Below are positions 125-17,768 of a stretch of 20,000 bases of DNA, one piece after another. Made by a program: the position numbers and the translations under genes. How positions within the stretch are numbered: the stretch's first letter is position 1; each line of letters starts with the position of its first letter. This DNA comes from an uncultured virus (IMG/VR IMGVR_UViG_3300045391_003788) (taxonomy: Duplodnaviria > Heunggongvirae > Uroviricota > Caudoviricetes): IMG/VR virus record IMGVR_UViG_3300045391_003788. One strand, given 5' to 3'. A model generated the notes under the pieces. That model was not told the origin of the DNA. It ran no database searches and was given only the letters and a program-made list of their open reading frames with translations.

Positions 125-3100
125 TCAGAGTCTTTGCAGGCGCATCAGAATCTGGCGGGCCAGATCGTCACCACCGGTTGCGACAACACCCTGGACGGCA
201 TCCGCAGTTGCTCCGGCACCGACGCTCAATTGAACCGCGCCAGCCCCGACCTGGATGACGGTACTAGCGGAGTTGTTGCTGATTCGAGGAATCCCAGAAC
301 CGGTTGTCGGCAGCCCTCCGGAGATCAGTTGAGCCGACTTACCCATTGCCACCTCGACCTGCGGCATGGCGTCATAAATACCTTCGGCGAAGTTCTGCAT
401 CATGCGCTGGCCGCGCAGCAGGGTGTAACCCTTGCCGGACAGCGGACCCCATTCGGCGGGCGAACCCGGCAGGCCACCGGCGGCGGCACCGACCACACTG
501 GCGACCGCCGAGACCACGGAGCCGACCCGAGAGGCGATACCGGCGGCGAAGCCCTCGACCAATGCGGCCCCGGCGGACACGAATCGGCCCACCGCGCCGC
601 TGATGGCGGCCACCGCCTGGGCGATCATGTTGTTGATCGCGCCGACGATGGAGCCGATCGCCCCGGTCACAGCGGCGGTGAACCTCGGCCAGATCCCCGT
701 CCAGTTGGTCAACATCTGTTGGGTTCCGGTGGCAATCGTCGCCTCCGCCCGGGCGATGAAGGTTCCGATGTTGGCGACGATGTTGGACCAGGTGGTAATC
801 AGGAATGTGAGGATTGCATTCCAGATGGCATTCCATCCGGACTGAATGGCAGCCAGTCCGGTGGCGATAATCGAACCGGTTTGGGTGACGTGCCCCTGGG
901 TGTCCCCGACAATTCCAGTCCAGATGGTGTTCAGAAATGTTCGGATGGCGTTCCAGGTGTCGGTGAAGATTGCCTGGAAACCGGTGAGCCCGGCCTGAAT
1001 AATTGCGCCGATTACGGCCAGTTGGGTCGTCACGAACGGACCGAGAGCCGACCAGAATGCTTCCCAAATAGTTCTCAGTACAGCCACACCGGCCGCAAGC
1101 AGAGTATTCAGGATGGACATATTTCCGGCAACGGCTGCCTGAATGATGGCAAATGCTGACGTCACCGGCGGAATGAGCAGTTGCCATTGGGTCTGCCAAA
1201 TGGCGATCAGTCCGGCACCGGAGTTCGTGAAGATCGCGGTGAGCCCGTTGAAGCCGTTGGTGACCGCCGTGGTGACGTTGTCCCAGGAAATGCCGGTCTG
1301 AGCCTCGACACCGAGCCAGATCGTGGTCCATGCCGAATTGATCGCCGCGCCGACCACCGCCAGGATGCCGACAAAGATCTGAGTCAGGCCCTGGCCCCAG
1401 GTCGCGAGCCAACTGACCCAGTCCGTGAAGATCTTCTTGACGCCCTCCCAGACCAGCGTCCAGTCGCCAGCGAGCAAGCCGACGAAGATCTCGACCAGGG
1501 CGCGAATCTGTGCGAGACCGCCGCTGACAATGCCCTGGATGATCGTCCAGACGCCGGAAAGAATGGTCGACAGGCCGGGCCAAACCGTATTCCAGATGTC
1601 CTGGATGGCCAGCAGGCCGAGTTGGAACGCGCCGACCAACGTCGTGATGGCGCCTTCGACGTTGGTGAAAATGTTCTGGATATCCGTGGAAATCTGCTGG
1701 CCGTCGGACGCCCACCAGTCGCGGAACTTCTGGACCTCTTGCAGGGCGAATTGCCAGACCTGCTGGAATCCCGGGCCGAAGGTGGTGACCAGCCAGTTCG
1801 CAACGTCCTGGGCCCGCTGCCAGAAGTCCTGGAGGAATTGAACGATCTGCGGCCAGACCTGCTGGGCCAGGGAGACGATGTTGTTCCAGGCGTCGGTGAC
1901 CAGCCGTCGAAAGGTCTCCGAATTCTGCCAGGCGAGAATGAAGGCGCCGACCAGCAGGGCGATCAGACCGAGCACGATGCCGACCGGTCCGGCCAGCGCC
2001 GTGAGCACCGGGCCAAGTTCCTGGAACGTCTTGAAGAAGGTCAGAAGCGGACCGAGGACATTCAGCAGAACGCCCAGAATGCCACCGATAGCCAATGCGA
2101 TGGACAGCAAGTTCGGACTGGTGTCATTCAACTTGACGATGAAGTCGAAGACCGCCTTCAGGGCGGGCACCAACTTCTCGCCGATGGGGGCGGCGGCCTC
2201 GACGATGGCCAGAAGCGCATCCCAGAACGATCGCAGCAGCCCCATGACGTTCGGCAGGTTGTCCTGGACGTACTGAATGAAGGCCTTGAATCCGGCGTTC
2301 TGGGAGAGCGTGGTGCCCCAGGTCTTGAACTTCTCGGTCAACTTGACCAGGCCGTCACCGAACGAGATGGAGAACGGCATGAAGGCGTCCAGGACGCCCG
2401 CCAATCCCTCGATGATGTTTCCGGTGGCCTGAAGGAATTGCTTCGCGCTGGTCGCGGCGAACCTGTCGATGTCGGAGAAGAACTGCGACCAGAAGGGCCC
2501 CTGAAGCGCCCGGATGGCGTTTCGCTCCAGGTCCAGGAGGACATCTGCAACGCCCTGGAGGACGCCCTTGGTTCGGGGCAGGTTGTCAATCAGGAACTGG
2601 AGGCCCTCCTTGACCATCGTGAACTGGGTGTTCGCGATAGAAGAAGCAACCTGCTTCCAGACCTCACGGAAATCCATGATGGTTCCGAGAACCTGGCGCT
2701 GCACCGGGTCAAGGGCCTGGTAGGCCTCCTTCATCTTCTGAAGGGCGTCCTCCTTGTCCTTGCTGGTCACCGCCTTCGCGTATTCGTCCTCAGCCTTGAT
2801 GATCTTGTCGTATTCCAACTTGATCGGGTGGAAGTTCGTGACGAATGCCGCCGCGAACAGTCCGACCCCGGTGGTCCCGGCGGTCAGGGCAGCGCCGATC
2901 GTGCCGATGCCACCCGCCGCCACGGCGCCTGCGGTCACGGCGACCGGACCCAGCCCGAGGATGGCGGTAGCCAGCAGGCTGACCTGGTTGGAGGCCCGCA
3001 GGGCGACCTGGGTGAGGGAGTCCAGGTCACGCCAGGCCGACCGATCCTTGTCCACCTCGACGGTGACCGTCTCGTCGGGGATGGCCTTCAGGGCCGCCTC

Positions 3101-3529
3101 CAGGGCGGCCAGGTGCGCCAGTCCGGCGCCGATGTCGACATCTACCGCGACGTTGGCGTTCTGAAGGGAGAGCAGGATCGAGCGGAAGATCTGGATCTGG
3201 GCCAGCGCCTTGCCGGTGTCCACGTCGACCCCGACCGCGATCTTCTTGGTCAGCGCGTCCAGGGCGGCTCGCAACTGGACGATATGCGCCTCGGCGGCGC
3301 CGCTGTCGATGTCGACCGGGACCTTGATGTCCTCGGCGTCGACTTCCTTCATCTTGGTTTCGAGGTCGTCGAGTTCGGCGATGACCTCGGCGAAGTTCGT
3401 CTCGACGTGCGCGTCGGCTGTTTCCGCCCCCAGCCGACGCAGCCGCTCGTCCAGCCGGTCCAGTTCGGCCATCGCCTCGGTGACGCCAGTGATTTCGACG
3501 TCGACACTGAGTTCTGCGACCGTGGGCAC
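125..3529 (-). CDS. tape measure protein
   Basis: 1134 aa, Ala/Gly/Ile/Leu-rich and helical-looking, periodic Trp/Phe, hydrophobic central stretch, C-terminal LPGSPAEWGPLSGKG motif typical of actinophage tape measures; directly follows the chaperone pair. Confidence 0.95.
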   Translation of the reverse strand: MPTVAELSVDVEITGVTEAMAELDRLDERLRRLGAETADAHVETNFAEVIAELDDLETKMKEVDAEDIKVPVDIDSGAAEAHIVQLRAALDALTKKIAVGVDVDTGKALAQIQIFRSILLSLQNANVAVDVDIGAGLAHLAALEAALKAIPDETVTVEVDKDRSAWRDLDSLTQVALRASNQVSLLATAILGLGPVAVTAGAVAAGGIGTIGAALTAGTTGVGLFAAAFVTNFHPIKLEYDKIIKAEDEYAKAVTSKDKEDALQKMKEAYQALDPVQRQVLGTIMDFREVWKQVASSIANTQFTMVKEGLQFLIDNLPRTKGVLQGVADVLLDLERNAIRALQGPFWSQFFSDIDRFAATSAKQFLQATGNIIEGLAGVLDAFMPFSISFGDGLVKLTEKFKTWGTTLSQNAGFKAFIQYVQDNLPNVMGLLRSFWDALLAIVEAAAPIGEKLVPALKAVFDFIVKLNDTSPNLLSIALAIGGILGVLLNVLGPLLTFFKTFQELGPVLTALAGPVGIVLGLIALLVGAFILAWQNSETFRRLVTDAWNNIVSLAQQVWPQIVQFLQDFWQRAQDVANWLVTTFGPGFQQVWQFALQEVQKFRDWWASDGQQISTDIQNIFTNVEGAITTLVGAFQLGLLAIQDIWNTVWPGLSTILSGVWTIIQGIVSGGLAQIRALVEIFVGLLAGDWTLVWEGVKKIFTDWVSWLATWGQGLTQIFVGILAVVGAAINSAWTTIWLGVEAQTGISWDNVTTAVTNGFNGLTAIFTNSGAGLIAIWQTQWQLLIPPVTSAFAIIQAAVAGNMSILNTLLAAGVAVLRTIWEAFWSALGPFVTTQLAVIGAIIQAGLTGFQAIFTDTWNAIRTFLNTIWTGIVGDTQGHVTQTGSIIATGLAAIQSGWNAIWNAILTFLITTWSNIVANIGTFIARAEATIATGTQQMLTNWTGIWPRFTAAVTGAIGSIVGAINNMIAQAVAAISGAVGRFVSAGAALVEGFAAGIASRVGSVVSAVASVVGAAAGGLPGSPAEWGPLSGKGYTLLRGQRMMQNFAEGIYDAMPQVEVAMGKSAQLISGGLPTTGSGIPRISNNSASTVIQVGAGAVQLSVGAGATADAVQGVVATGGDDLARQILMRLQRL

Positions 3530-3551
3530 CGGCGCGATCCGCCTTTACTTT

Positions 3552-3755
3552 TTAGGGCTTTGGTTTATTCCGGCGGTTTTGCTCATCCTGCTCGGCCTTC
3601 ATGGCGGCCAAACCAATTCTCATCCACCACACCGGCTTTTGTGCCAGGTCCCATGGTGGCACGCGCAGGTAACGCGATGCCTGAATCAGTCCCCACCATT
3701 CCGGCGGCTCACCCATTTCACCCTCGGTCGCGAGCCAACGACCGAGGGATCTCAT
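3552..3755 (-). CDS. C-terminal part of the frameshifted tail assembly chaperone (gpT/gpGT-like)
   Basis: Lies in the -1 frame of the upstream ORF, entered at GGGGGAA (3761-3755); short ORF with a xxPWDL motif directly before the tape measure. Confidence 0.85.
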   Translation of the reverse strand: MRSLGRWLATEGEMGEPPEWWGLIQASRYLRVPPWDLAQKPVWWMRIGLAAMKAEQDEQNRRNKPKP

Positions 3756-3761
3756 TCCCCC
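3721..3761 (-). promoter_or_regulatory. programmed -1 ribosomal frameshift signal (slippery GGGGGAA plus downstream hairpin)
   Basis: Minus strand reads GCG GGG GAA TGA, then a 6-nt spacer after the heptamer and a perfect 10-bp stem CCCTCGGTCG/CGACCGAGGG (3721-3730 with 3739-3748, 8-nt loop). Confidence 0.85.
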
Positions 3762-4093
3762 GCTTCCTGGTCCTCGTTCACGGCCTTGATGATGTGGGTG
3801 AGCAGACGCACCGGGACCTTGCTGGCAATCGGATCGTTCGCCAGGTCGGCCGGGTCGACCGGAGCGTCCAGCGGGATGTCCTCGCCGTCGGAGTCCTTCA
3901 AATCCCAGGTCACGATGATGTCGCGGATCATCCGGGCGATCCGACCGGCGTCCTTGCGCGCCTCGGCGGTGAGCGCGGAGATCTGGGCGATGGTCATAGA
4001 ACTGGGTCGGTACCGGACGTTGAGAACGGCACCCCCAGGAAACGAGATGGCCAGGTCCTTTTCCCCGGACGAAAGGGCTTCGTCAATGCGCAT
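3752..4093 (-). CDS. tail assembly chaperone (gpG-like)
   Basis: Between major tail and tape measure; IVTWDLKDSDGEDIPL motif typical of chaperones. Start moved to ATG 4093 because the longer start at 4156 lies inside a hairpin. Confidence 0.85.
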   Translation of the reverse strand: MRIDEALSSGEKDLAISFPGGAVLNVRYRPSSMTIAQISALTAEARKDAGRIARMIRDIIVTWDLKDSDGEDIPLDAPVDPADLANDPIASKVPVRLLTHIIKAVNEDQEAGE

Positions 4094-4139
4094 GGGCCGA
4101 AGTCTGTCATAGCGAATGCAGCGAACGGGGCAAAATGCA

Positions 4140-4184
4140 GAACGGAGCATTCCCACCCGCGCACCAGATGGGAATGCTCCGTTC
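4140..4184 (-). terminator. probable intrinsic terminator after the major tail gene
   Basis: Perfect 16-bp stem GAACGGAGCATTCCCA (4140-4155) / TGGGAATGCTCCGTTC (4169-4184), followed on the minus strand by TGCATTTTG; starts 12 nt after the stop codon. Confidence 0.7.
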
Positions 4185-4196
4185 GCTCGTATCGGA

Positions 4197-5201
4197 CTAG
4201 AGCGCTGAGGTGGTGGTGACGACCTTCACCTGGAATGCCTTGCCCCAGGTGGTGTCGTGCACCGCCGAGAAGTCCCAGGTAATGGCGTAGACGCCGTCCT
4301 GGTCCTCGAAGGGCTCGATGTCCGAAATCATCCCGGCCATGTCGATGGTGAACTTGTGATTCACCGTGATACCGCCGGTGTAGAGGGCCGGGCCGACCGC
4401 CTCCAGCCGCATGAACTTGATCGTGCCGTTGCGCATCGCGGTGAGGTTGGCCATCGCCGCCGCGTCCGCCATCTGCATGATCGAGAACTCGACCTTGGGC
4501 TCGATCTCGATCGTGTTGACGAACGACGACTGTGCCGCGTCCACGACCCACAGCGGGCCGAACCGGTCGGCGATCTTGATGTCACCCTTCAGGGCGCGGG
4601 TCAACTTGGTGGTGCCCAGGCCCGCCGCCGTGTCGTCCAGGTAGACCGAGAACTGGGTCGGCCGGACCGGGATCTGCGCCAGCGAGGTCGGCGAGGCGGT
4701 CATCGTGATGCCGTCCTGGATCGCCGTGCCGAGCAGAGTGCCGCCGATCTTGCACTCCTCGCGCGACCAGTCCATCGACCACTCGGTGATGATCCCGTTG
4801 GTGACCTTGTGAGCCCGGACCGAGGAGCCCTGCTCCAGGGTGTAGGTCTTCGGAGTGTCCGCGTTGAAGGTGTTCGAGTCGAACGTCCAGGTGTAGCCAC
4901 CGGACGGCGTGCCACCGTCCATGACCTGAACCACCGACGTGGCGGTGCTCATCAGCGACGAGAAGATGTACGGCAGTTCGGTGTAGACCGGCCAGCCCTC
5001 GATCTCGGCCTCGGACCATTCCTTACCGACAACGGCAAGAGTCGGGTACTTCTGGCCAATCGGCAGCACCATGTTCGACTCGACCTTGGGGCCGATCGAG
5101 AAGCCGATGCTGGCCAACTTCTTGTTGGCGGCGACCGACGTGCCCGGAGTGGTCTCGACGCCGATCTGCACTGTCTGGCTAATAGTGCTGCGCTCCGCCA
5201 C
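4197..5201 (-). CDS. major tail (tube) protein
   Basis: 334 aa, Thr/Ser-rich beta-type composition, N-terminal QIGVETTPGT motif typical of tail tubes, GAAGGAG RBS, upstream of the chaperone and tape measure. Confidence 0.85.
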   Translation of the reverse strand: MAERSTISQTVQIGVETTPGTSVAANKKLASIGFSIGPKVESNMVLPIGQKYPTLAVVGKEWSEAEIEGWPVYTELPYIFSSLMSTATSVVQVMDGGTPSGGYTWTFDSNTFNADTPKTYTLEQGSSVRAHKVTNGIITEWSMDWSREECKIGGTLLGTAIQDGITMTASPTSLAQIPVRPTQFSVYLDDTAAGLGTTKLTRALKGDIKIADRFGPLWVVDAAQSSFVNTIEIEPKVEFSIMQMADAAAMANLTAMRNGTIKFMRLEAVGPALYTGGITVNHKFTIDMAGMISDIEPFEDQDGVYAITWDFSAVHDTTWGKAFQVKVVTTTSAL

Positions 5202-8688: not shown

Positions 8689-9747
8689 TCAACTCCGTCG
8701 CACGCGAATGATGACTTCGGATGCCTTCAGGGCGACCACCCGGGCGATACCCGGCCGACCGAAGACGCGACCCAGTGGGGTCAGAGCCAGTGTGCCAACA
8801 GATGTGATGGAGCCGGTGAATAGGCGAATGAACTTCTTCGAATACGTACCGACCGCTGTCGTGCTACCGATGAAGGGATTCTTCAGAATCGTCTTCCGCA
8901 GTGTTGCAGTTGTCGAGATTGTCCCGGTCAGCACCTTGTTGGCCCGCTTCAGGAAGGCCCCGGTCGCGGTGCATGAACCGGTGAAGACCTTGACGACGAC
9001 CTTCAGGAACGTGGCCGCACCGGTTGCCGTCGATGAGCCGGTGAACGGGTTCTTCGTGACGTTCTTCTTGAAGGCGCCGGTCGCGGTGACCGACCCGGTG
9101 AAGTTCTGGACGTTGCCGGGCCGCAGCGCAACGGTGATGCCGGTCATCGACACCGCTGCCGACGGGTTGACCGACCAGGTCTTGGTGCCGACGCTACCCG
9201 CCGTGGCGCGCAGTTCCTGATACATCGCCCCGCATCGGCCGGTACCGGCAGCGGAGTACGCCTTGACCAGGGTCGATCCGGACGGCGGGACCACCGTACG
9301 AGTCGCGGTGTCCGCTCCGAACAGGTACAGCGCCATCGCGCCGTTGGTCACCGTGCTGTAGGCGCCGACCGTGATCGAGGTCGAGTTGTTGCCGCCGGTC
9401 ACCGCCGTCGCGTCGACCGGCGTGGTGGGGTGCACGCCACCGTAGGCCTGCACGATGGCCGTCATCCGGTCGGCGGTCTGCCCGGAGGAGGCGGACGGGG
9501 CGGTCAGCGACCCGTTGTCGAACTTGTAGTAGGTCGCCACCGTGACCGGGTCGGCCGAACCGAAGGCGACCGGCGTATGCAATTGCGTCCAGCCCGACGG
9601 GCCGGTCAAAGTGCCGGTTGCGTCGAACGTCATGATGAATTGGGCAACGACGAGGTCGCCGGTCACCCTGTCCGAGGGCAGGGAGCCGCTGATCGATGTG
9701 GTCGAGGAATTCTCGGCCACCGTCGCCGTGCGACCGGTGATCGCCAT
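8689..9747 (-). CDS. putative virion fibre/appendage protein (N-terminal Thr/Ser-rich beta domain plus six C-terminal repeats)
   Basis: 352 aa; GDLVVA...PSGWT...YYK...AYGGV domain followed by six FTGSxTATG-like repeats. Confidence 0.6.
   Translation of the reverse strand: MAITGRTATVAENSSTTSISGSLPSDRVTGDLVVAQFIMTFDATGTLTGPSGWTQLHTPVAFGSADPVTVATYYKFDNGSLTAPSASSGQTADRMTAIVQAYGGVHPTTPVDATAVTGGNNSTSITVGAYSTVTNGAMALYLFGADTATRTVVPPSGSTLVKAYSAAGTGRCGAMYQELRATAGSVGTKTWSVNPSAAVSMTGITVALRPGNVQNFTGSVTATGAFKKNVTKNPFTGSSTATGAATFLKVVVKVFTGSCTATGAFLKRANKVLTGTISTTATLRKTILKNPFIGSTTAVGTYSKKFIRLFTGSITSVGTLALTPLGRVFGRPGIARVVALKASEVIIRVRRS
8775..9102 (-). repeat. six imperfect 18-20 aa tandem protein repeats
   Basis: Repeat starts: FTGSVTATGAFKK / FTGSSTATGAATF / FTGSCTATGAFLK / LTGTISTTATLRK / FIGSTTAVGTYSK / FTGSITSVGTLAL. 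Confidence 0.8.
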
Positions 9748-9772: not shown

Positions 9773-10471
9773 TCAGCCGCCCGACGGGAAGGTAAGTTGG
9801 TAGGTGGCCGCAATCGACTCGGACGAGGCCAGGTTGACCACCGAGAACAACGAGCGGTCCAGCATGACGCCCGAGCCCGACGTCGCGACGGAGAAGATGC
9901 CGTGCTCGGTGGCGGCGACCGTCGCGGAGACGGTGATGGTGGCAGTGGTTTCGTACGTCTTGGAATCACCGGACTTCTCGCCGAGCGTTCCAGTCGGGCG
10001 AGTGTTCGACGACGAATACTGGGTGGTCAGTTCGGTGACCAACGCGGTCTGGGCGGCGGACTCGGCGGTTGTGCCGGTGCCCAGGCCGTGGAACTTCATG
10101 TTCTCCAGTTCCACCAGGTTCTGGAAGGCATCCACGATGTAGCCGACACCGGTGTCCGTCACCACCCGGCACGAGGCCAGACCGAGGTCTTCCATCGTCC
10201 CGTCGTTGCGGAACACGCTCAGCCACAGGTGACCGATGGCGAACAGACGACCGTGGTCAAAAGCGTCCTGGTCGACCAGGGAGCGCTCGAAGTTCTCGTC
10301 GAGGTTGGCCTGCTGCCAGGCCCGACGCATCGCCGCCATGCGGTCCCAGAAGCGGATGGACCGCTGCGGGGTGCCGTAGCGAACGGCGTCGTCGAGGTTG
10401 CGGATGACGGGACGCACCGGAGGGACCAGGCGCCGCATCGACACATTGCCGGTGGGCTGGCTCGTGCTCAT
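9773..10471 (-). CDS. putative collar/fibre-attachment structural protein
   Basis: Start reassigned to ATG 10471 (GGGAAGAAGGAA upstream; avoids overlap with the adaptor). Motifs HGLGTGTT...TALVTE...TEHGIF...GVMLDRSLF...ATYQLTF resemble tail-collar/fibre N-terminal domains. Confidence 0.6.
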   Translation of the reverse strand: MSTSQPTGNVSMRRLVPPVRPVIRNLDDAVRYGTPQRSIRFWDRMAAMRRAWQQANLDENFERSLVDQDAFDHGRLFAIGHLWLSVFRNDGTMEDLGLASCRVVTDTGVGYIVDAFQNLVELENMKFHGLGTGTTAESAAQTALVTELTTQYSSSNTRPTGTLGEKSGDSKTYETTATITVSATVAATEHGIFSVATSGSGVMLDRSLFSVVNLASSESIAATYQLTFPSGG

Positions 10472-10484
10472 TTCCTTCTTCCCG

Positions 10485-11006
10485 TCAACTGGTGTGGTTA
10501 ATGACCACGGAGTCAGTAACCGACGCATTCGGCGTTAGATCGCTCGCCTCACTGTCGTCAATGTCATACCTACCAGACCCGTATGCGGCCGAGCGGGTCC
10601 AGCGCGTGGAGTTCACGGTGCGCAAAGAACCGGTTGTCCCGGTCCCATAACCGGCCGCCGCCATGGCCTGATCGATATTTGCGAAATCGAGAATGGAAAG
10701 CACCATTCTCGGACGAGGAGTGTCCCGCTGGAATTGCCAGCCGATGGACACACCGCCGTCGGAGGTGACCGACTGCTGGGACAACAGGTCGGGATTGGCC
10801 AACACCCGGATGACCGCCTCGCAGACCGTCATGACGACGACCCGCTCGGGCACCGACCCGTTCGCCACGGCGGCGGCCAGGGACGGGCGGTTGATGTCGA
10901 TCAGGGTGATGGCGTCATCGATCAAGGTGACCGCGACGTCCGATTCCGCGACCGAAAGGGGACGCCAGCGCTGCTCGATGTCGGGAGTGCCGACGGAGTA
11001 GGTCAC
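10485..11006 (-). CDS. head-to-tail adaptor (gp15/gp6-like connector)
   Basis: DIEQRWRPLS..E...A.TLIDDA and V.CEAVIRVLANPD motifs of actinophage Gp19/Gp15/Gp42-type adaptors; AAAGGGG RBS. Confidence 0.85.
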   Translation of the reverse strand: MTYSVGTPDIEQRWRPLSVAESDVAVTLIDDAITLIDINRPSLAAAVANGSVPERVVVMTVCEAVIRVLANPDLLSQQSVTSDGGVSIGWQFQRDTPRPRMVLSILDFANIDQAMAAAGYGTGTTGSLRTVNSTRWTRSAAYGSGRYDIDDSEASDLTPNASVTDSVVINHTS

Positions 11007-11030: not shown

Positions 11031-11438
11031 TCAGGCGGTGCGGGTGACGACGACCTCGACCTCGCCGCCCGGGTCGGTGATCCCGGTGCCGACGTGGAGG
11101 CTCTGGAACTGGAGGATGTCGCCAGCGGCCACGACGAGGTTCGCGGCGGTGCCCGAGAGGGTCACCGCGATCTCGTCGAACGCCACCAGGTTGGTGCCGG
11201 ACACCAGCGCGAGGCTGGCGACCGACGTGGAACCGGCACCGGTCTGACCCTTGTTGACCAGGTTCAGGGTGCGGCTGTTGGTGTTCGCGCCGGACAGCGC
11301 GGCCACAGGCGAGTAAGAAACCGAGGAAACGGTGCCCGCCTCGGTGACCTTGATGGAATACGAGGCGTCGTTACCGGCCGTCGAAACGGCGGCAGTCTGC
11401 GCCCGGTAGACCGTGGTCTTGGCAGCCAGGTCGGCCAT
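11031..11438 (-). CDS. probable capsid decoration/cement protein
   Basis: 135 aa, Ala/Thr/Ser/Val-rich beta protein directly after the major capsid gene; GAGGGG RBS. Confidence 0.55.
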   Translation of the reverse strand: MADLAAKTTVYRAQTAAVSTAGNDASYSIKVTEAGTVSSVSYSPVAALSGANTNSRTLNLVNKGQTGAGSTSVASLALVSGTNLVAFDEIAVTLSGTAANLVVAAGDILQFQSLHVGTGITDPGGEVEVVVTRTA

Positions 11439-11456: not shown

Positions 11457-12470
11457 TCACGGAAGCGCGATGTAGGCGACCGGGTAACGGCTCGCCTCCA
11501 CCGGACGGTCGTTGTTGATGGTGTTCACGACCTGCCAGCCCACGCGGAAGGTCAGACGCACGGCGGTCATGTCCTGCTGAGCGAGGTTGAACATGATCGC
11601 GCCGGTGTTGTCCTGAATGACGGCCTCGGTGAGGATCTTCAGGCTGATGTCCTTGCGGACCGCGACGACGAACTGCGAGAAATCGCCACCGATGACCCGG
11701 GGAGAACCCGAAGAAGTCGCCCAGAGACCACGCATCGGGTACGAGATGGGGTGCCCGTCGAGGGTCCGCAGGTCGGCGCCGATGCGCACGCCGCCGTCGG
11801 TGCGGTCGCCGAGGGTGTTGCGGGTCTTGCGCAACTTGGTCCGCAGCGAGGTGGCACCGACCCAGCCGGACAGTTCGAAACCGTCCTGCTCGACCTTGTC
11901 GTAGAGGTCGTCCACGTCACCGAGGAAGCCACCGGCCGCCGCCGCGTTCGTGCCCTCCGTGACCGAGTTGGACGCCGAGTTGGCGGCCGACACGACGTAG
12001 GTGGGGAACGAGGAGGGAGCGTTAGTGCCGAAGAAGACCGCCTGGTCCAGCACTCGGGCGAAGGCCTCCGCAAGAAGCGGCTGCGCCTCGTCCCAGATGT
12101 TCGCGTCCACGTCGTCCAGGACGTTGTCCGGGACCGGCATGATGACGGCGATCTCTTCGATGTTCAGGTACTTGTTCGACCACGCCATCTCGGTGGTCTG
12201 CTTCATGCCCGAATCGCCCGCAACCCAGTAGGCGGCCGGGAGAGCCGACAGAACAGGGAATCGGATCTGTGCCCGGGCGACCGGGATGTGGCGGAACAGG
12301 GAAAGGGTCGCCGAGGACTCGACGGCCTTCCCGAGCATGATGTCGCTGACTTCCTCGGGAATGAGGGCAGCGGCGTCGGTCCGGTTGGTGCTGTTGTTGT
12401 ACGCACCACCGGAGTACGGGTAGATCGGGGTCCCGTCGGCTCGGTAGCCGATCGGCGTGAGGCTCGACAC
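11457..12470 (-). CDS. major capsid protein (HK97 fold)
   Basis: 337 aa; ALIPEEVS, AYWVAG.S..K, EEIAVIMPVP..VLDD, FARVLDQAVFFG, GDFSQ, NLAQQDMTAVRL motifs; GGAGG RBS 7 nt before the GTG. Confidence 0.95.
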   Translation of the reverse strand: MSSLTPIGYRADGTPIYPYSGGAYNNSTNRTDAAALIPEEVSDIMLGKAVESSATLSLFRHIPVARAQIRFPVLSALPAAYWVAGDSGMKQTTEMAWSNKYLNIEEIAVIMPVPDNVLDDVDANIWDEAQPLLAEAFARVLDQAVFFGTNAPSSFPTYVVSAANSASNSVTEGTNAAAAGGFLGDVDDLYDKVEQDGFELSGWVGATSLRTKLRKTRNTLGDRTDGGVRIGADLRTLDGHPISYPMRGLWATSSGSPRVIGGDFSQFVVAVRKDISLKILTEAVIQDNTGAIMFNLAQQDMTAVRLTFRVGWQVVNTINNDRPVEASRYPVAYIALP

Positions 12471-12535
12471 GACAGACCTCCAAGGGTGAATTCAGGGGTG
12501 GTGCAGCCCCAGTCGTGTCGGGTGCTGGCGCTGCG

Positions 12536-13201
12536 TTAACGGCGTCCGCGACCTGCTGCATCACGGATGATGTCGTTCATGCTCCGAGGCTTCCCAGAAG
12601 TGGGGCCCCGAACACCGCCCTCGAAATCGACCCTGCGTGAAACCTTGGCCAGGTGGGGCTTTTCGCGAAGTAGATCCGAGAGATCCCGCTCGATCGACCG
12701 GGAGTCGACCTCGCCGTCCTCGTCTACGTCGTAATCGCCCGCGTTCAGGAACTTGACCGCATCCCTGGGGTCGGCGAACTTGTCCGCCGCCAGGGCCCGA
12801 ATCTCCGCATTGACGATCCGGGTGTTGGCCTTGTCGAGAATTTCTCGCTGGACTTGGCGGACATCCACCTCGTCCTGCTTCTTCTCGGCCTTGTCGGTCT
12901 TCGCCGCCAGCGCCGCCCGGACCTCGTCCGGTGACGTGACGCCCAGTTCCTTCGCCAGGACCCGCCAGGGACGAAGTGCATCCCGGGCCGCCTTGGCCGC
13001 CGCACGCTCTGCCTCGATCGCCTTCCGCCCACCGGGCGTCAGGCCATCTCCGGTTTCGTTCTCCTCGTCCTCGTTCTCTTCCTCGGATTCCTCGCCCCCC
13101 TCTTCGCCTTCGGCTCCGTGGTATCCCCAGAAGGGGGTGCCATCGGCCCGCAGGCCCAGGGGAACGATTTCCTCGGTGGTCTCAGACAAGTCGAACTGCA
13201 T
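12536..13201 (-). CDS. capsid scaffolding protein
   Basis: 221 aa; acidic N-terminal tract, GRKAIEAERAA coiled coil, FADPRDAVKFL, LLREKPHLA, C-terminal MNDIIRDAAGR; GAAGGAG RBS. Confidence 0.9.
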   Translation of the reverse strand: MQFDLSETTEEIVPLGLRADGTPFWGYHGAEGEEGGEESEEENEDEENETGDGLTPGGRKAIEAERAAAKAARDALRPWRVLAKELGVTSPDEVRAALAAKTDKAEKKQDEVDVRQVQREILDKANTRIVNAEIRALAADKFADPRDAVKFLNAGDYDVDEDGEVDSRSIERDLSDLLREKPHLAKVSRRVDFEGGVRGPTSGKPRSMNDIIRDAAGRGRR

Positions 13202-13265
13202 GATTTCTCCTTCGGGGGCTACGGCATCACGCCGTTGATTCCTGGAGCCTCACGCTCATCAGGGA

Positions 13266-14339
13266 TCAACGCAGAATGTACCCGAACCGAGTAAGCGAAC
13301 GGCGAACTTCGTCACTGTTCCCGTGAGCATCCCGAATGATCTGCCAAGGTGTTGGCCGAGGAGTCCTGCCTCCATTTGTGTTCAGACCCCTGGTCCCGGT
13401 CGTGGTATATCGCCGACCGTCACCAGCAATGGTGATCCCGCCCTTGCGACCCACATTGACAACCGATGACATGCTCGCGCCCTGGCGGATGGCCTCGGCA
13501 TCCGCCTTGCCGAAGACGGCGTCCTGCTGGCGCGGCTCCAGGGACTTGAAGTACGTCTCCGGATCAGTAATGAATTCGTCGGCAATCTCTTGATTGACCG
13601 GAATATGGCGACAATCGCATCTCAAATGCCGCTCGAACCCCGCACTCCACCGGTAGAAACGCCCGGCCAGGATGATGCAGCGCGAGCACGACGGAGTGAC
13701 CAGGACCCGGGTGTAGCCGAGTTGGGGGTGCCGGGAGCGGGACCGGCGGCTTACCTTCGTCAGGCGGGCACCGGTAGGAGATGTCGAGGGTGAGCCGGTG
13801 CTCGCACCAGCCAAGGCCACCTGATCCGCCGCCCGACCGGCGTCCGGGATCTCCGAGGTGACCACCGCACGCAGAAACGACTCGCCTGCCTCCCGCGCCA
13901 CGGCGGGGCTGTCGCCACGCCGGGTCCGGATCGAGGCCTGGATCGGGGCACCCGCGAGCAGGGACTCCAGGTTCCGGCCATCCGCCGCCCGGCCCGCGAA
14001 CGACGACGGCACCACCTGCGGCACGTCCGCCCAGTCCGTGCCGCCGACCTCCAGTGCGGTCCGGACGTAGGCGGTCGCGTCGGCCGCCGCCGACTCCTGG
14101 GCAAGCGCGAGCAACACGAAGATCCGCTCGCCGAGGCCCCGGGTGAACCACGACCCGAACCAGTCGGCGGTCTCCACCTGAGCCCAGACGGCAAGGATCG
14201 CGGTCAGCGTGGCGACGGTGAGGGCGCCCTGCTCGGCCTGATGGGCATCGGCGACGGTCTGGACGGCCTGGACCTGTTGCTGGACCTGTTGCTGGACCTG
14301 AGGATTGGGCGCCGGGCGTTCACCCGGCCCCGTCGTCAT
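13266..14339 (-). CDS. MuF-like minor capsid / capsid maturation protein
   Basis: Between portal and scaffold; DAGRAA...GYTRVL..PSCSRCIILAGRFY...FERHLRCDCRHIP (CxxC...HxxCxC) signature. Confidence 0.8.
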   Translation of the reverse strand: MTTGPGERPAPNPQVQQQVQQQVQAVQTVADAHQAEQGALTVATLTAILAVWAQVETADWFGSWFTRGLGERIFVLLALAQESAAADATAYVRTALEVGGTDWADVPQVVPSSFAGRAADGRNLESLLAGAPIQASIRTRRGDSPAVAREAGESFLRAVVTSEIPDAGRAADQVALAGASTGSPSTSPTGARLTKVSRRSRSRHPQLGYTRVLVTPSCSRCIILAGRFYRWSAGFERHLRCDCRHIPVNQEIADEFITDPETYFKSLEPRQQDAVFGKADAEAIRQGASMSSVVNVGRKGGITIAGDGRRYTTTGTRGLNTNGGRTPRPTPWQIIRDAHGNSDEVRRSLTRFGYILR

Positions 14340-16066
14340 CCGCCGCTACCGGACGACGAGCCTCCGCCTCGGGGTCGGCCGTTCTTCCCCGGACGCCCTT
14401 GCTGCCCTGAGGCACCGGGTGCGGTGCCGGGTGTCTGCCGGTTGTTGTTGACGGGGTTCTTGCCGGTGCCGCCGTTGTTCACGCCCGCCGTGGCGGTTCC
14501 GCCCGGACCGTTGGGACTACCGGGCGGAGTCAGCGGGATCGGCGAGTTGCCACCGGCGAGCGCCCGGTACCGGGACGCCAGGATCTTGGTCTCGTCGTTG
14601 GCGTTCGCCCGCGAGGCGGCGTCGTCCTGCATCCGCTTCCAGCGCTCGCGCTCCGGCGGGGTGGCACCCCAGCGCTCCCACAGCGCCTCCTGCGGGACGC
14701 CGAGAGTCGACATCTTGGTCAGTGCGTCGACCAACTCGCCCTCGGTGCGGTGCTCGGGGTTGCGCCAGATCGTCTCGATCGTCTCGCCGTCCGGGGTCGG
14801 CAGACCGGCCAGTTTCCGGGCGGTGCGCATCGCCCGCTCCAGCGGGTCGTCGATGTTGCGCATCCGCTGCCGGACCTTGGCGACCAGGCCAGACTCCGAC
14901 GCCTTCAGGGTCTGCCCGTTGACGTTGCTCATCTCGCCCAGCAGGTACTGAGCGGGCGTGCGAGTGCGGGAGGCAATGTCCTTGACATCCTCCTTCTTCG
15001 CCGACGAATACGGGTCGAGAGCGGCGGCTTCCCACTGGCCGAAGTTAGTTTCCACCACCTCGGTGGTGACAATCCGGTTCCGCCCGGTCTCGATAGTGGG
15101 ATTGGGATTGCCATTCGAATCGTGCGTCGGCCAACCCGAGATCCACTTTTGCGGGAATGCCCCGTAGTCCTGGGTTACCAGGCGGTCGGCAATGGTCTTG
15201 TTGATTCGATCCTGAATATCGGTAATGTCTTCCAATTCACTACGACCACCGGTTAGTAGTCGCGGATTGTTCGGGAGTTCATAGATCGGCACCTCATCGA
15301 GGTCCGTTGGCGCAGGCCATGATTCACCCGCGACCTCGCGCTGAGTCCACAGCGGCTGGATGAGTTGCTGGAGACGAAGCCGCTTCTCCAGATCGTCAAG
15401 GGGCACCCGGCTCTGCGCATCCTTCGGCCTGTTCTGCTTGTACTTGTAGACGCTGACCGAACCGTCCGCCTCGACCATGTACAGAACCGCGTGCACGGTC
15501 GCGGTCCAGTCGTCGTCGTAGACCTTCAGCGCCGCCGCCACCTCGCGCCGGTTGGTGCCCGGCACGTGCTCGACGATCGTCTGCATCGGGTGCTCGACGT
15601 ACATCAGCGGCGTGCTCGGATCCTTCACGTTCGGCAGCACGCACAGGTAGGAGACGCCCGCGATGGCGGCCTCCAGCAAGCCCTTGTCGAACTCGCTGTC
15701 CATGTTGTTCGCGGTCCAGATGCGCCACGTGTCCGGGTCCGAATCCGGCGCGATATCGGCCTGCGAGGCGGACTCGTTCGGTCGGTCGGCGCCACGGCGG
15801 GAGGGCGAGCCGAGGCGGAAGCCGTCGACCATCATGCGCTCGACCTGCGCGTCCACCACGAGTCCGCAGTAGTTCGACCGAGACATGTGCAGGATCTGCC
15901 GGAATTCGTCCTCGGCCTCGGGGTGCAGCCAGGGCAGGGGGTGCTGACCGGTGTAGTAGTCGTTGTAGAACTCGATCCGCTGATTCCGGCGCACCAGTTG
16001 GCACCACAGGCGGTGAGCCCACCACTCCGGGCTCAGGGGCTCCAGAACAACCCGATCGACCGCCAC
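14336..16066 (-). CDS. portal protein (SPP1 gp6-like)
   Basis: 576 aa; YYTGQHPL, NYCGLVVDAQVERM..DGFR, WRIWTANNMD, NNPRL..GRSE, IQDRINKT, AFPQKW, ALWERWG motifs; follows TerL. Confidence 0.95.
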   Translation of the reverse strand: MAVDRVVLEPLSPEWWAHRLWCQLVRRNQRIEFYNDYYTGQHPLPWLHPEAEDEFRQILHMSRSNYCGLVVDAQVERMMVDGFRLGSPSRRGADRPNESASQADIAPDSDPDTWRIWTANNMDSEFDKGLLEAAIAGVSYLCVLPNVKDPSTPLMYVEHPMQTIVEHVPGTNRREVAAALKVYDDDWTATVHAVLYMVEADGSVSVYKYKQNRPKDAQSRVPLDDLEKRLRLQQLIQPLWTQREVAGESWPAPTDLDEVPIYELPNNPRLLTGGRSELEDITDIQDRINKTIADRLVTQDYGAFPQKWISGWPTHDSNGNPNPTIETGRNRIVTTEVVETNFGQWEAAALDPYSSAKKEDVKDIASRTRTPAQYLLGEMSNVNGQTLKASESGLVAKVRQRMRNIDDPLERAMRTARKLAGLPTPDGETIETIWRNPEHRTEGELVDALTKMSTLGVPQEALWERWGATPPERERWKRMQDDAASRANANDETKILASRYRALAGGNSPIPLTPPGSPNGPGGTATAGVNNGGTGKNPVNNNRQTPGTAPGASGQQGRPGKNGRPRGGGSSSGSGG

Positions 16067-16094: not shown

Positions 16095-17768
16095 CTAGCC
16101 GAGGTGAACGGCACCAACGGCCCGCGTATACCGCGACGGGGAACCCCACTTCTTTTCCTCGGTCAGGGTTGCAGCCGCCTCGTGCGCCAAGATACCGGCC
16201 ATTGCTACGTCAATGTGCCTATGCGCATCGGGCTTCGACAGGATGTATCGGTCGGAAGGCTTGGCGGCCTTCCGGCAATTCGCCAGGTGATCCTCGGCGA
16301 TCGGATCACCATCGTGCTTGATTCGCCCGGTCTTGAAATCGGCCAGGGAGCGGACCAACGCATTGTGCATGGGGATGATTCGGTAGGTCGGCCAAGAAAT
16401 TACGACCTCTTCGCCGTACTTCACGCTCCAGGCGCCGATCTCCGAATGCCAGTCCTTCGGGTCGCAGAACATCATCCGGACCGTGTACTTACGGAAGATC
16501 TCGTCCACGGCGGCGTCGACCTCCGCGCGGGGGATCTCACCGCCCCACTCACTCGGGTCCCAGTAGGTCGGCCGGGCGTCCGGACCGTAGGTCGGGGTGA
16601 ACAGATAGTTGTCTTGGGTAACCAACCGGATGGCGGTCCAGTCCGAGGTCTCCGAACCGTCGAACCCGGCGGCGACCGGCGTGCCCCGGGGGACGATCTT
16701 CGGCGAGCGGGTGGCGTCGATCACACCGTCCGGTAGCCAGGCCCCCTGGCCCGCGACGATCCGGTTCCCGTAGAACCGCTCCGCCTGGGCCGGGTCCTCC
16801 AGCATGATCTCCATCGCCTCGGCCTCGATGGCGTTCAAGTCGACCCACCAGCAGCCTCGGTAGACGTGCTTCAGGATCTTGCGGCGGTCGCGCTGGTTGC
16901 CGAAGGACAGGTTGGCTGGGGCCAGCCGGTGGAACCGGAAGATGTCCGGGCGGCGCAGGGCGTTGCGGGCCGTCTTCTGGGCGACCGAGTTCTCCGACGG
17001 GTCCCAGCCGTTGGTCGTTTCCGTCGACCGGCCGGACATGCCCGAGAGGCCTCGCCGCTGGGTCGTGGCGACCTTGTCCATTTTGTTCTGAACTAACCAG
17101 ATTCCCGTCTCGTCCTGCGGCACAAAAGTGACACGCTGACCCAATCGGGACTGGTTGGACGAAGTAACGGTGTCGATCCGGCCGTCATTGTCCAGGCGGG
17201 TGAACTCCTCACCGATCCGGACGACAACCTCAGCGAGCGGGCCGTTCTCCACCATCGGCTTGAAGGCGCCGTAGATGTTGAAGGTCTGCTCCTCCGAATA
17301 CGCCGTGATCTGAATGAGCGGCGTCGGCCAGGGCGCACCCATCGGCTCGCCCGGGGCGTATTCGTAGACCCAGCCACAACCGCATCGATGATCGCGGCAG
17401 TCGTACTTTTCCCCGCCCCGGGCGAACCCGGCGAACATCGCCGGACCCATGCCCTCCAGGCAGACCTGGGCAGCCGTCATCGGGCCCTTACCGGCCTTCT
17501 GGGGCATGACGATCTGCGACCGGCGGTAGAAGAATGCGGGGGCGCCGATCAGAGGTCGCTCGTTGGTCGGGGCGGGTGCGTCAGACCGAATGCGGTAGTG
17601 GTTCGCGAAGACCCAGGCCTGCCAGTCGGCGAGGATGTACGGGTTGCCCTTGTGAAAACCGTCCGGGATGACGCAGTGTCGCTCCACCCATTCCAGGGCT
17701 ACCCACAGGACCGGGAAATCTACGCGGTACTCATCCTCGGTCGTCGGCGGCGATAGCACTTGGGACAT
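16095..17768 (-). CDS. terL: terminase large subunit
   Basis: 557 aa; LADWQ, Walker A-like PQKAGKG, Walker B FVPQDE, nuclease motifs GFDGSETSD, CDP and IDVAMA. Confidence 0.95.
   Translation of the reverse strand: MSQVLSPPTTEDEYRVDFPVLWVALEWVERHCVIPDGFHKGNPYILADWQAWVFANHYRIRSDAPAPTNERPLIGAPAFFYRRSQIVMPQKAGKGPMTAAQVCLEGMGPAMFAGFARGGEKYDCRDHRCGCGWVYEYAPGEPMGAPWPTPLIQITAYSEEQTFNIYGAFKPMVENGPLAEVVVRIGEEFTRLDNDGRIDTVTSSNQSRLGQRVTFVPQDETGIWLVQNKMDKVATTQRRGLSGMSGRSTETTNGWDPSENSVAQKTARNALRRPDIFRFHRLAPANLSFGNQRDRRKILKHVYRGCWWVDLNAIEAEAMEIMLEDPAQAERFYGNRIVAGQGAWLPDGVIDATRSPKIVPRGTPVAAGFDGSETSDWTAIRLVTQDNYLFTPTYGPDARPTYWDPSEWGGEIPRAEVDAAVDEIFRKYTVRMMFCDPKDWHSEIGAWSVKYGEEVVISWPTYRIIPMHNALVRSLADFKTGRIKHDGDPIAEDHLANCRKAAKPSDRYILSKPDAHRHIDVAMAGILAHEAAATLTEEKKWGSPSRYTRAVGAVHLG

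Follow-up and report, generated by a model that had tools for sequence, protein, structure and literature searches.

Proteolytic head maturation is a textbook step of tailed-phage assembly, and the enzymes known to perform it are serine proteases of the HK97, T4 and ClpP types, together with one case of a host cysteine protease, Prp. The leader concerned in that case, in staphylococcal phage 80alpha, copies ribosomal protein L27. Metalloproteases of the JAMM/JAB deubiquitinase type (PF14464/PF01398) act after the G-G tail of ubiquitin-like proteins. The present analysis concerns a 20,000-nucleotide stretch of DNA from an uncultured virus of the Caudoviricetes (IMG/VR record IMGVR_UViG_3300045391_003788; the whole stretch is called the window below), in which the major capsid protein and the scaffold protein carry the same short motif near their N-termini. 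In 80alpha, host Prp is described as cleaving the capsid and scaffold proteins at an F/A bond, with the N-terminus of the scaffold protein essential for assembly and its cleavage dispensable (PMC5744158).

The other system compared was that of phage Patience, in which gp19 is a Prok-JAB protein (E = 6.8e-10), the sequence ..PIFGG is found at residues 30-34 of gp21, and the capsid protein gp23 has PIFGG-T at residues 15-20. The N-terminal-most mass spectrometry (MS) peptides reported for gp21 start at residue 35, after Gly (PMC4324244), so the new N-terminus of gp21 lies directly after PIFGG. The same paper lists gp19 as ‘Protease’ and does not link it to the ends of gp21 or gp23 (PMC4324244).

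In the window, capsid residues 6-23 (12455-12402) were aligned without gaps to scaffold residues 14-31 (13162-13109), with 10 of the first 16 positions identical, as a preliminary description made from the letters of this DNA had claimed. The 16-residue match is the best diagonal of the full-length pair; when both proteins were shuffled 1000 times, the top diagonal ranged from 6 to 9, the maximum of 9 being seen 6 times and 10 being reached in none (0/1000). In the six frames of the window, DGTP was found at the capsid and scaffold motif sites only, and R.DG.P additionally matched one overlapping, probably non-coding frame at 10202. Because 6 of the 10 shared residues are written with different codons, the conservation is at protein level, as had been proposed. 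The expected ribosome-binding sites were present at both starts (Shine-Dalgarno sequences in Table 1), and a GTG with a GGAG-type site ahead of the leader was also found in 13 related loci. There is no in-frame start codon from the capsid GTG to residue 45, so the capsid leader must be translated. The motif consensus across relatives was P-[IL]-G-x-R-x-[DN]-G-x-P-[IF]-[YWF]-x-[YFM]-x-G-[GAS].

The capsid protein was matched by PF05065 over the whole fold (profile match, E = 1.6e-24, residues 35-316) and by phrog_10, and belongs to the Bobi/Bridgette/Muddy-like capsid family. From residue 24 on, it is 64.7% identical to the capsids of Arthrobacter phages Bridgette and Eileen. In an AlphaFold2 (AF2) model of the full capsid protein, the mean predicted local distance difference test (pLDDT) score was 73, and the leader was modelled at low confidence, without a confident structure. 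The scaffold leader is followed by an acidic Gly-rich linker, and a tblastn search with the scaffold against isolated phages gave a sole match, to Streptomyces phage Dubu, at 34% coverage.

Relatives were collected in three samples. The first, obtained with the capsid as query, comprised 33 loci (5 from genomes and 28 from viral contigs); the leader was present in 6 of these, one of them identical to the window, and the scaffold N-terminal motif accompanied it in 6/6. The other loci of this sample showed no motif-pattern match on capsid or scaffold, two of them being without the capsid N-terminus. The metagenome and viral samples were picked by patterns taken from the C-terminal region of the capsid protein and were therefore blind to the leader. 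Among the 80 metagenome loci (72 with readable N-termini), 4 had the leader, and the scaffold motif was found in all 3 leader loci whose scaffold start could be read (in one of them P is replaced by L) and in 0/68 leaderless loci. For the 80 viral loci (76 readable N-termini, 10 with the leader), the corresponding counts were 9/9 (eight by pattern; L185 by eye, with PYW) and 0/66. Nine further paired contigs were obtained by a scaffold-seeded scan, and in a complete leader-bearing genome (G002) the motif was located on the capsid and scaffold only. The joint occurrence on scaffold and capsid that the preliminary description had suggested looking for was therefore seen in every leader locus of the two leader-blind samples with a readable scaffold start.

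In an alignment of 12 leaders, the last motif position was [GA] and P, G, R, G, P and G were invariant, and across 26 aligned capsids P6, G8, R10, G13, P15, I16, G21 and A23 were invariant. The leader ended in [YFV]-x-G-[GAS] followed by A in 26/26 of these capsids, and scaffold leaders ended in [YFM]-x-G-[GAS]. Mean identity among capsids was 71% for the leader vs. 67% for the body; among 13 scaffolds the motif averaged 64%, the linker 25% and the body 38%. Conservation of the leader equals or exceeds that of the proteins that carry it. Scaffold motifs were closer to the motifs of other scaffolds than to that of their own capsid, indicating that both copies are old and vertically inherited, not recently copied. 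The leader is thus real, conserved and paired on the N-termini of capsid and scaffold.

A motif profile of 22 positions was searched against 1.84 billion representative sequences (E ≤ 0.001). The 17 matches comprised 13 scaffold-like proteins (212-248 amino acids (aa), motif within the first 55 residues), one 70-aa fragment and three unrelated repeat proteins, in agreement with the N-terminal restriction that had been put forward for checking. No ribosomal, host-type or other cellular family was retrieved at this threshold; the host proteins with the same leader that the preliminary description had suggested seeking were not found, and mimicry of a host protein by the leader was rejected. A word-based search with the capsid leader returned 15 proteins, all of them PF05065 capsids of 336-348 aa. 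Seven copies of ..FGDLADGRPFW.. in an unrelated repeat protein of secreted appearance (P0017, 487 aa) resemble the hairpin half by chance.

The position at which the leader ends is marked out by the rest of the capsid family. Apart from the Eileen type, leaderless homologues with readable N-termini start with M/V-[AP]-[YF]-[ND]-[NS], exactly after the G-G position, which supports the earlier proposal that AYNN is a natural mature start. In two low-GC relatives, a leader of the 80alpha/Prp type is found at the same junction of the homologous capsid (marked by a slash): ..LNLQLF/T in L130 (2456-3439, 3501-4154), with an identical 13-residue leader opening the open reading frame (ORF) after the capsid, and ..LDLQRF/A in L132 (542-1276, 1302-2276), with the motif also on a scaffold-like ORF. 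The capsid family therefore has three N-terminal states at one residue: leaderless, G-G leader and Prp-type leader. This junction is the strongest comparative argument that the leader would be a removable tag and AYNN the mature start. The G-[GAS] tail followed by A on capsids, invariant in type, looks like a processing site, and the leader is probably cleaved off, judging from these comparisons.

Further N-terminal variants were noted. The Arthrobacter Eileen/Bridgette group, the closest isolated phages, lacks the motif on both proteins, and Eileen-type capsids carry a different 14-residue N-terminal extension. The L172 capsid (2468-3502) has a degenerate leader (..RADGRRIHKYSYS before AYNS, with P and G positions lost) that looks, from its sequence, to be decaying; the scaffold-like ORF upstream is without the motif, and the record is 43% complete with no JAB. 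On a 75.6-kb metagenome contig (L070; 2370-3371/1531-2340), a homologous capsid has a short 13-residue leader variant, ..AFAGG before AYDN, and the scaffold-like ORF upstream has ..FGLVGA before an acidic linker.

No protease was recognised by family searches of the window proteins, in line with the preliminary description, which had seen no canonical prohead protease, and no JAMM signature (H.H..S..D) was present in the six frames of the window. Peptidase_S78 was found in 0/5 leader-bearing records (1 of them complete), and Prp (PF04327) and ClpP in 0/5 records, including the 3 near-complete leader genomes. The scan of the complete leader genome G002 (77.9 kb, terminal repeats) covered 138 of its 140 candidate ORFs, leaving aside two that cross fetch boundaries, and the peptidase-type matches were a cell-wall M15 peptidase and a 274-aa Prok-JAB (JAMM) protein. 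PF14464 was present in 3/3 leader-bearing records at least 98% complete (G002, G016, G017) and in 0/12 leaderless genomes (11 viral records at least 90% complete and phage Eileen); a protease distributed together with the leader had been among the things proposed for checking. The JAB was not found in seven fragmentary leader-bearing records (13-52% complete), which are uninformative, its absence being expected there because ~40 kb separate the gene from the head module. Among 35 JAB loci of the viral collection, only those on the G002, G016 and G017 contigs had the full-length form of 273-274 aa. Residues E26, H83, H85, S93 and D96 were invariant and the E...HxH...S..D signature intact. A tblastn search with the G002 protein against isolated phages gave only one weak match, a Pseudomonas phage tail protein, so that this JAB subfamily yielded no cultured relative. 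The G002 genome also encodes FtsK/SpoIIIE+HNH, AAA_10, ArdC-N, Prim-Pol and an AAA_33 kinase of zeta-toxin-like type, which together resemble a plasmid or conjugation gene set.

A complex of the G002 JAB (alignment of 6) with capsid residues 1-45 (alignment of 24) was modelled, with three controls, none of them G-G-containing. The complex scored 0.89 and the best control 0.09, the pass mark being one that 116/157 solved complexes and 2/215 mismatched pairs reached; runs shared at least 73% of contacts, and partner pLDDT was at least 60. In the modelled interface the JAMM site (JAB residues 26, 28-29, 81, 83-88 and 93-96) contacts leader residues 14-26; a pocket takes up F19 (P4), and residues 20-21 (P3-P2) pair with JAB 54-57, the register of a ubiquitin tail. 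The model supports binding of the leader by the JAB; it does not show binding. The JAB is the leading candidate for the enzyme that cuts the leader, an assignment made tentatively and set a little short of an even chance. No paper was found in the literature that gives a JAMM/JAB/MPN enzyme a role in phage capsid or head maturation; a ‘Gly-Gly’ match in the ArV2 paper refers to M23 peptidases and has no bearing on the leader.

As a whole, these results are best explained, with a probability of about 0.5, by the shared leader being a removable tag that is cut by a phage JAB. Capsid residues 1-22 and scaffold residues 1-30 would form a common flexible leader with two halves: a probable beta-hairpin, P-[IL]-G-x-R-x-[DN]-G-x-P-[IF]-[YWF], followed by a tail, [YFM]-x-G-[GAS], that matches the L-R-G-G tail of ubiquitin-like proteins in register. 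The tag would be recognised by a JAB/JAMM zinc metalloprotease of the phage and cut after G-[GAS]. The cut capsid would then start at A-Y-N-N, in the same register as leaderless relatives after Met removal, and the cut scaffold at the acidic linker. The arrangement would work like the capsid and scaffold leaders of 80alpha with host Prp, with an unrelated tag and an enzyme of a different class.

The likeness to 80alpha extends to gene order (terminase, portal, minor capsid protein, scaffold, capsid), to a homologous capsid family (25% identity in the alignment; the tblastn matches included 114 Staphylococcus phage records), and to the presence of one short N-terminal motif on both capsid and scaffold, followed on the scaffold by an acidic Gly-rich linker. 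The analogy drawn in the preliminary description was apt, given this homology and the Prp-type leaders of low-GC members at the same junction. The differences are that the tag in the window is ~18 residues long and ends in G-G, whereas that of 80alpha is ~9 residues long and ends in F, the sequences being unrelated; that the leader resembles neither the L27 extension (..LNLQxF/A) nor any host family; that no Prp gene was found in 3 near-complete leader-bearing relatives; and that the candidate enzyme of the window group is a phage zinc JAMM metalloprotease, in contrast to a host cysteine protease. The leader is most likely a functional analogue of the 80alpha/Prp leaders, by comparison of the two, and not a member of that system.

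Patience, also an actinobacteriophage, shares a hydrophobic-x-G-G tag near the N-termini of a scaffold-like protein and the capsid, and a phage JAB gene. Its JAB differs in being 147 aa long and encoded in the head module beside a MuF gene, whereas the JAB of the relatives of the window is 273-274 aa long, has an extra C-terminal domain and is encoded ~40 kb away beside a YdjM-like gene (27% identity over 102 residues between the two). The capsid families also differ (gp23 has no PF05065 match), and the tag in the window is longer, with a conserved hairpin half. Systems of the HK97 (S78), ClpP and T4 gp21 type are alike in that head maturation removes the scaffold and an N-terminal stretch of the capsid protein; they differ in that the leader of the window has 22 residues vs. 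~100 for a delta domain, a separate scaffold is present, and no such protease was recognised in the window, including between the portal and capsid genes. With JAMM deubiquitinases the shared features are the intact signature in the JAB of the relatives and a candidate substrate with hydrophobic-x-G-G at P4 to P1. Here, however, the ‘ubiquitin-like’ part would be only an 18-residue peptide, and the bond is an ordinary peptide bond near the start of a virion protein.

Several observations weigh against removal of the leader by a phage JAB. The 3/3 vs. 0/12 distribution corresponds to 1 chance in 455 if relatedness is ignored, a figure that overstates the evidence because the three positives are one lineage; the JAB-bearing genomes are also larger (76-81 kb vs. 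41-65 kb), so that the comparison does not amount to 15 independent observations. The gene is outside the window, and its carriage by the phage of the window is extrapolated from relatives. In three of these it lies, at the distance from the head module given above, directly behind a gene for a YdjM-like membrane hydrolase and in the vicinity of replication-type genes, a context that also fits other roles, e.g. counter-defence against ubiquitin-like systems. As JAMM-ubiquitin complexes have been solved, the pass of the complex model may partly reflect likeness to ubiquitin-tail complexes, not specificity. Several scaffolds have A or S at P1, and the Patience capsid is reported to be cut at 82/83, not after PIFGG (PMC4324244). 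In six loci (L050-L055) a conserved HP-x-TG segment and, after it, a variant of the motif, [AV]-[LIV]-G-x-R-x-D-G-R-P-I-W-P-x-x-G-[GA], are present on the scaffold only (ORFs at about 3440-4230 of each locus), beside unrelated capsids from other families without the motif. Two such scaffold-only genomes, G007 (100% complete) and one that is 88% complete, are without Prok-JAB. Since a complete genome with the motif on the scaffold alone has no JAB, the hairpin half may itself serve in assembly, like the N-terminus of the 80alpha scaffold protein.

These scaffold-only loci, with other capsid families and no JAB in the complete example, also speak for a different explanation, by which the motif is not cleaved and is kept on both proteins as a module for assembly or interaction: it would bind one partner of both (a chaperone, the portal or the MuF-like protein) or pair the scaffold with the capsid N-arms. 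The 80alpha scaffold, for which the N-terminal sequence and not its cleavage is described as essential to assembly (PMC5744158), is a precedent, and the MuF-like and portal genes are constant neighbours. Leaderless homologues of the same capsid family nevertheless start exactly at the junction, other relatives have a known cleavable Prp-type leader there, the capsid tail of [YFM]-x-G-[GAS] and A is invariant in type as a processing site would be, and the leader by itself is predicted by AF2 to be disordered (pLDDT ~30-50). A module retained on the mature proteins is considered unlikely.

A removable leader could also be cut by a host protease, with the JAB employed elsewhere, e.g. in counter-defence. 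Prp in 80alpha is the precedent for a host enzyme (PMC5744158), and the absence of JAB from the complete scaffold-only genome and its position far from the head genes, beside the YdjM-like gene, point the same way. Against this stand the lack of any host-type family among the profile matches, whereas the 80alpha leader copies ribosomal protein L27, the occurrence of JAB with the leader in all three near-complete genomes vs. none of the leaderless ones, and the placement of the G-G tail at the JAMM site in the complex model. A host cutter is judged to be less probable still than an uncleaved module.

The MuF-like Cys/His protein (13266-14339), which the preliminary description had named as a protease candidate, is very improbable as the leader protease and was rejected, since the same family with the same invariant CxxC...RHxxCDC occurs in leader-bearing, scaffold-only and leaderless loci and the modelled fold resembles MuF-like minor capsid proteins. 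The points in its favour are that phrog_1522 is labelled ‘head maturation protease’, that the protein has invariant Cys and His, and that its gene always adjoins the scaffold gene. Its four Cys and one His look like a structural zinc site. An AF2 model of the protein (pLDDT 81.7) had no PDB match at E ≤ 0.001, only helical-bundle matches (Z < 8) and no protease fold; in BFVD it matched MuF-like minor capsid proteins (E ~1e-5, TM 0.45-0.58). VG15 (PF25310) scored 17.6 bits on the window protein, under the 26-bit cut-off, PF04233 gave no match, and VG15 was found in 17/17 MuF-like relatives at E ≤ 1 (best 4.5e-9). The ‘protease’ label is moreover applied inconsistently. In the Patience RefSeq record (NC_023691.1, 11000-15400; L062), gp18 and the MuF-like gp20 bear the name ‘head maturation protease’ and the Prok-JAB gp19 that of ‘tail protein’; the product names in this record look shuffled. 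Calling MuF-like proteins ‘capsid maturation protease’ seems to be a custom of annotation, with no protease fold to justify the name. Overall, the preliminary interpretation stood as to a real N-terminal leader on both proteins, the AYNN start and the 80alpha analogy, and fell as to the MuF-like protein as protease.

What is new here is one capsid family with three interchangeable N-terminal states at the same residue, including a new G-G leader; a scaffold copy that always accompanies this leader on the capsid; and a testable enzyme candidate from the JAMM class, otherwise tied to ubiquitin-like systems. If leader removal by a phage JAB is true, a simple rule would predict mature capsid N-termini in many uncultured actinophage-like genomes, the widespread ‘capsid maturation protease’ labels on MuF-like proteins would be corrected, and a small portable pair of tag and protease would be defined. 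A wider proposal is offered with more reserve than the identification of the JAB as cutter: high-GC siphophages may tag capsid and scaffold with a miniature ubiquitin-tail mimic that is removed by a phage JAMM/JAB encoded outside the head module. Together with Patience-like phages, JAMM would then be a new class of head-maturation protease, and the 80alpha strategy would have been reinvented at the same junction with different tag-enzyme pairs (Prp type, G-G type, none).

Table 1. Positions of the leaders, their genes and neighbouring features in the window, and of the JAB loci in relatives
Feature	Coordinates	Strand	Remarks
Tape measure gene	125-3529	-	
Adaptor	10485-11006	-	
135-aa protein	11031-11438	-	Directly after capsid gene
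Major capsid protein gene	11457-12470	-	GTG start at 12470
Predicted mature major capsid protein, residues 23-337 + stop	11457-12404	-	HK97 fold
Capsid leader, residues 1-22 (motif P6..G22)	12405-12470	-	Predicted scissile bond G22/A23
Capsid Shine-Dalgarno GGAGG	12477-12481	-	6 nucleotides ahead of GTG
Scaffold gene	12536-13201	-	ATG start at 13201
Scaffold remainder: acidic linker, helical body, conserved C-terminal ..F[ED]GG.R..	12536-13111	-	phrog_4708, E = 6.4e-29
Scaffold leader, residues 1-30 (motif P14..A30)	13112-13201	-	Predicted scissile bond A30/E31
Scaffold Shine-Dalgarno AAGGAG	13207-13212	-	5 nucleotides ahead of ATG
MuF-like minor capsid protein (VG15-type), CxxC...RHxxCDC cluster	13266-14339	-	Context, not protease
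SPP1-type portal	14336-16066	-	Context; PF05133 E = 4e-28, phrog_104
Terminase large subunit	16095-17768	-	Context; phrog_19179, phrog_21277, phrog_9
JAB + YdjM-like loci (relatives)	G002 (L056 7926-9244); L223 915-2286; L224 1021-2400		

All genes of the window lie on the minus strand and make up the structural arm of a siphophage; in order of coordinates, the tape measure gene is followed by tail and connector genes and then by the adaptor (Table 1). The 135-aa ORF is retained downstream of the capsid in most relatives (47-66% identity). At the corresponding position in Bridgette lies the decoration protein gp7 (bioRxiv capsid paper), and blastp of the ORF against the Eileen locus showed no similarity at 1e-4. 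A 352-aa ORF at 8689-9747 (-) had no PHROG match; its C-terminal half contains about five degenerate repeats of the type ..FTGS.TATGA.., and its product may be a major tail or tail-decoration protein.

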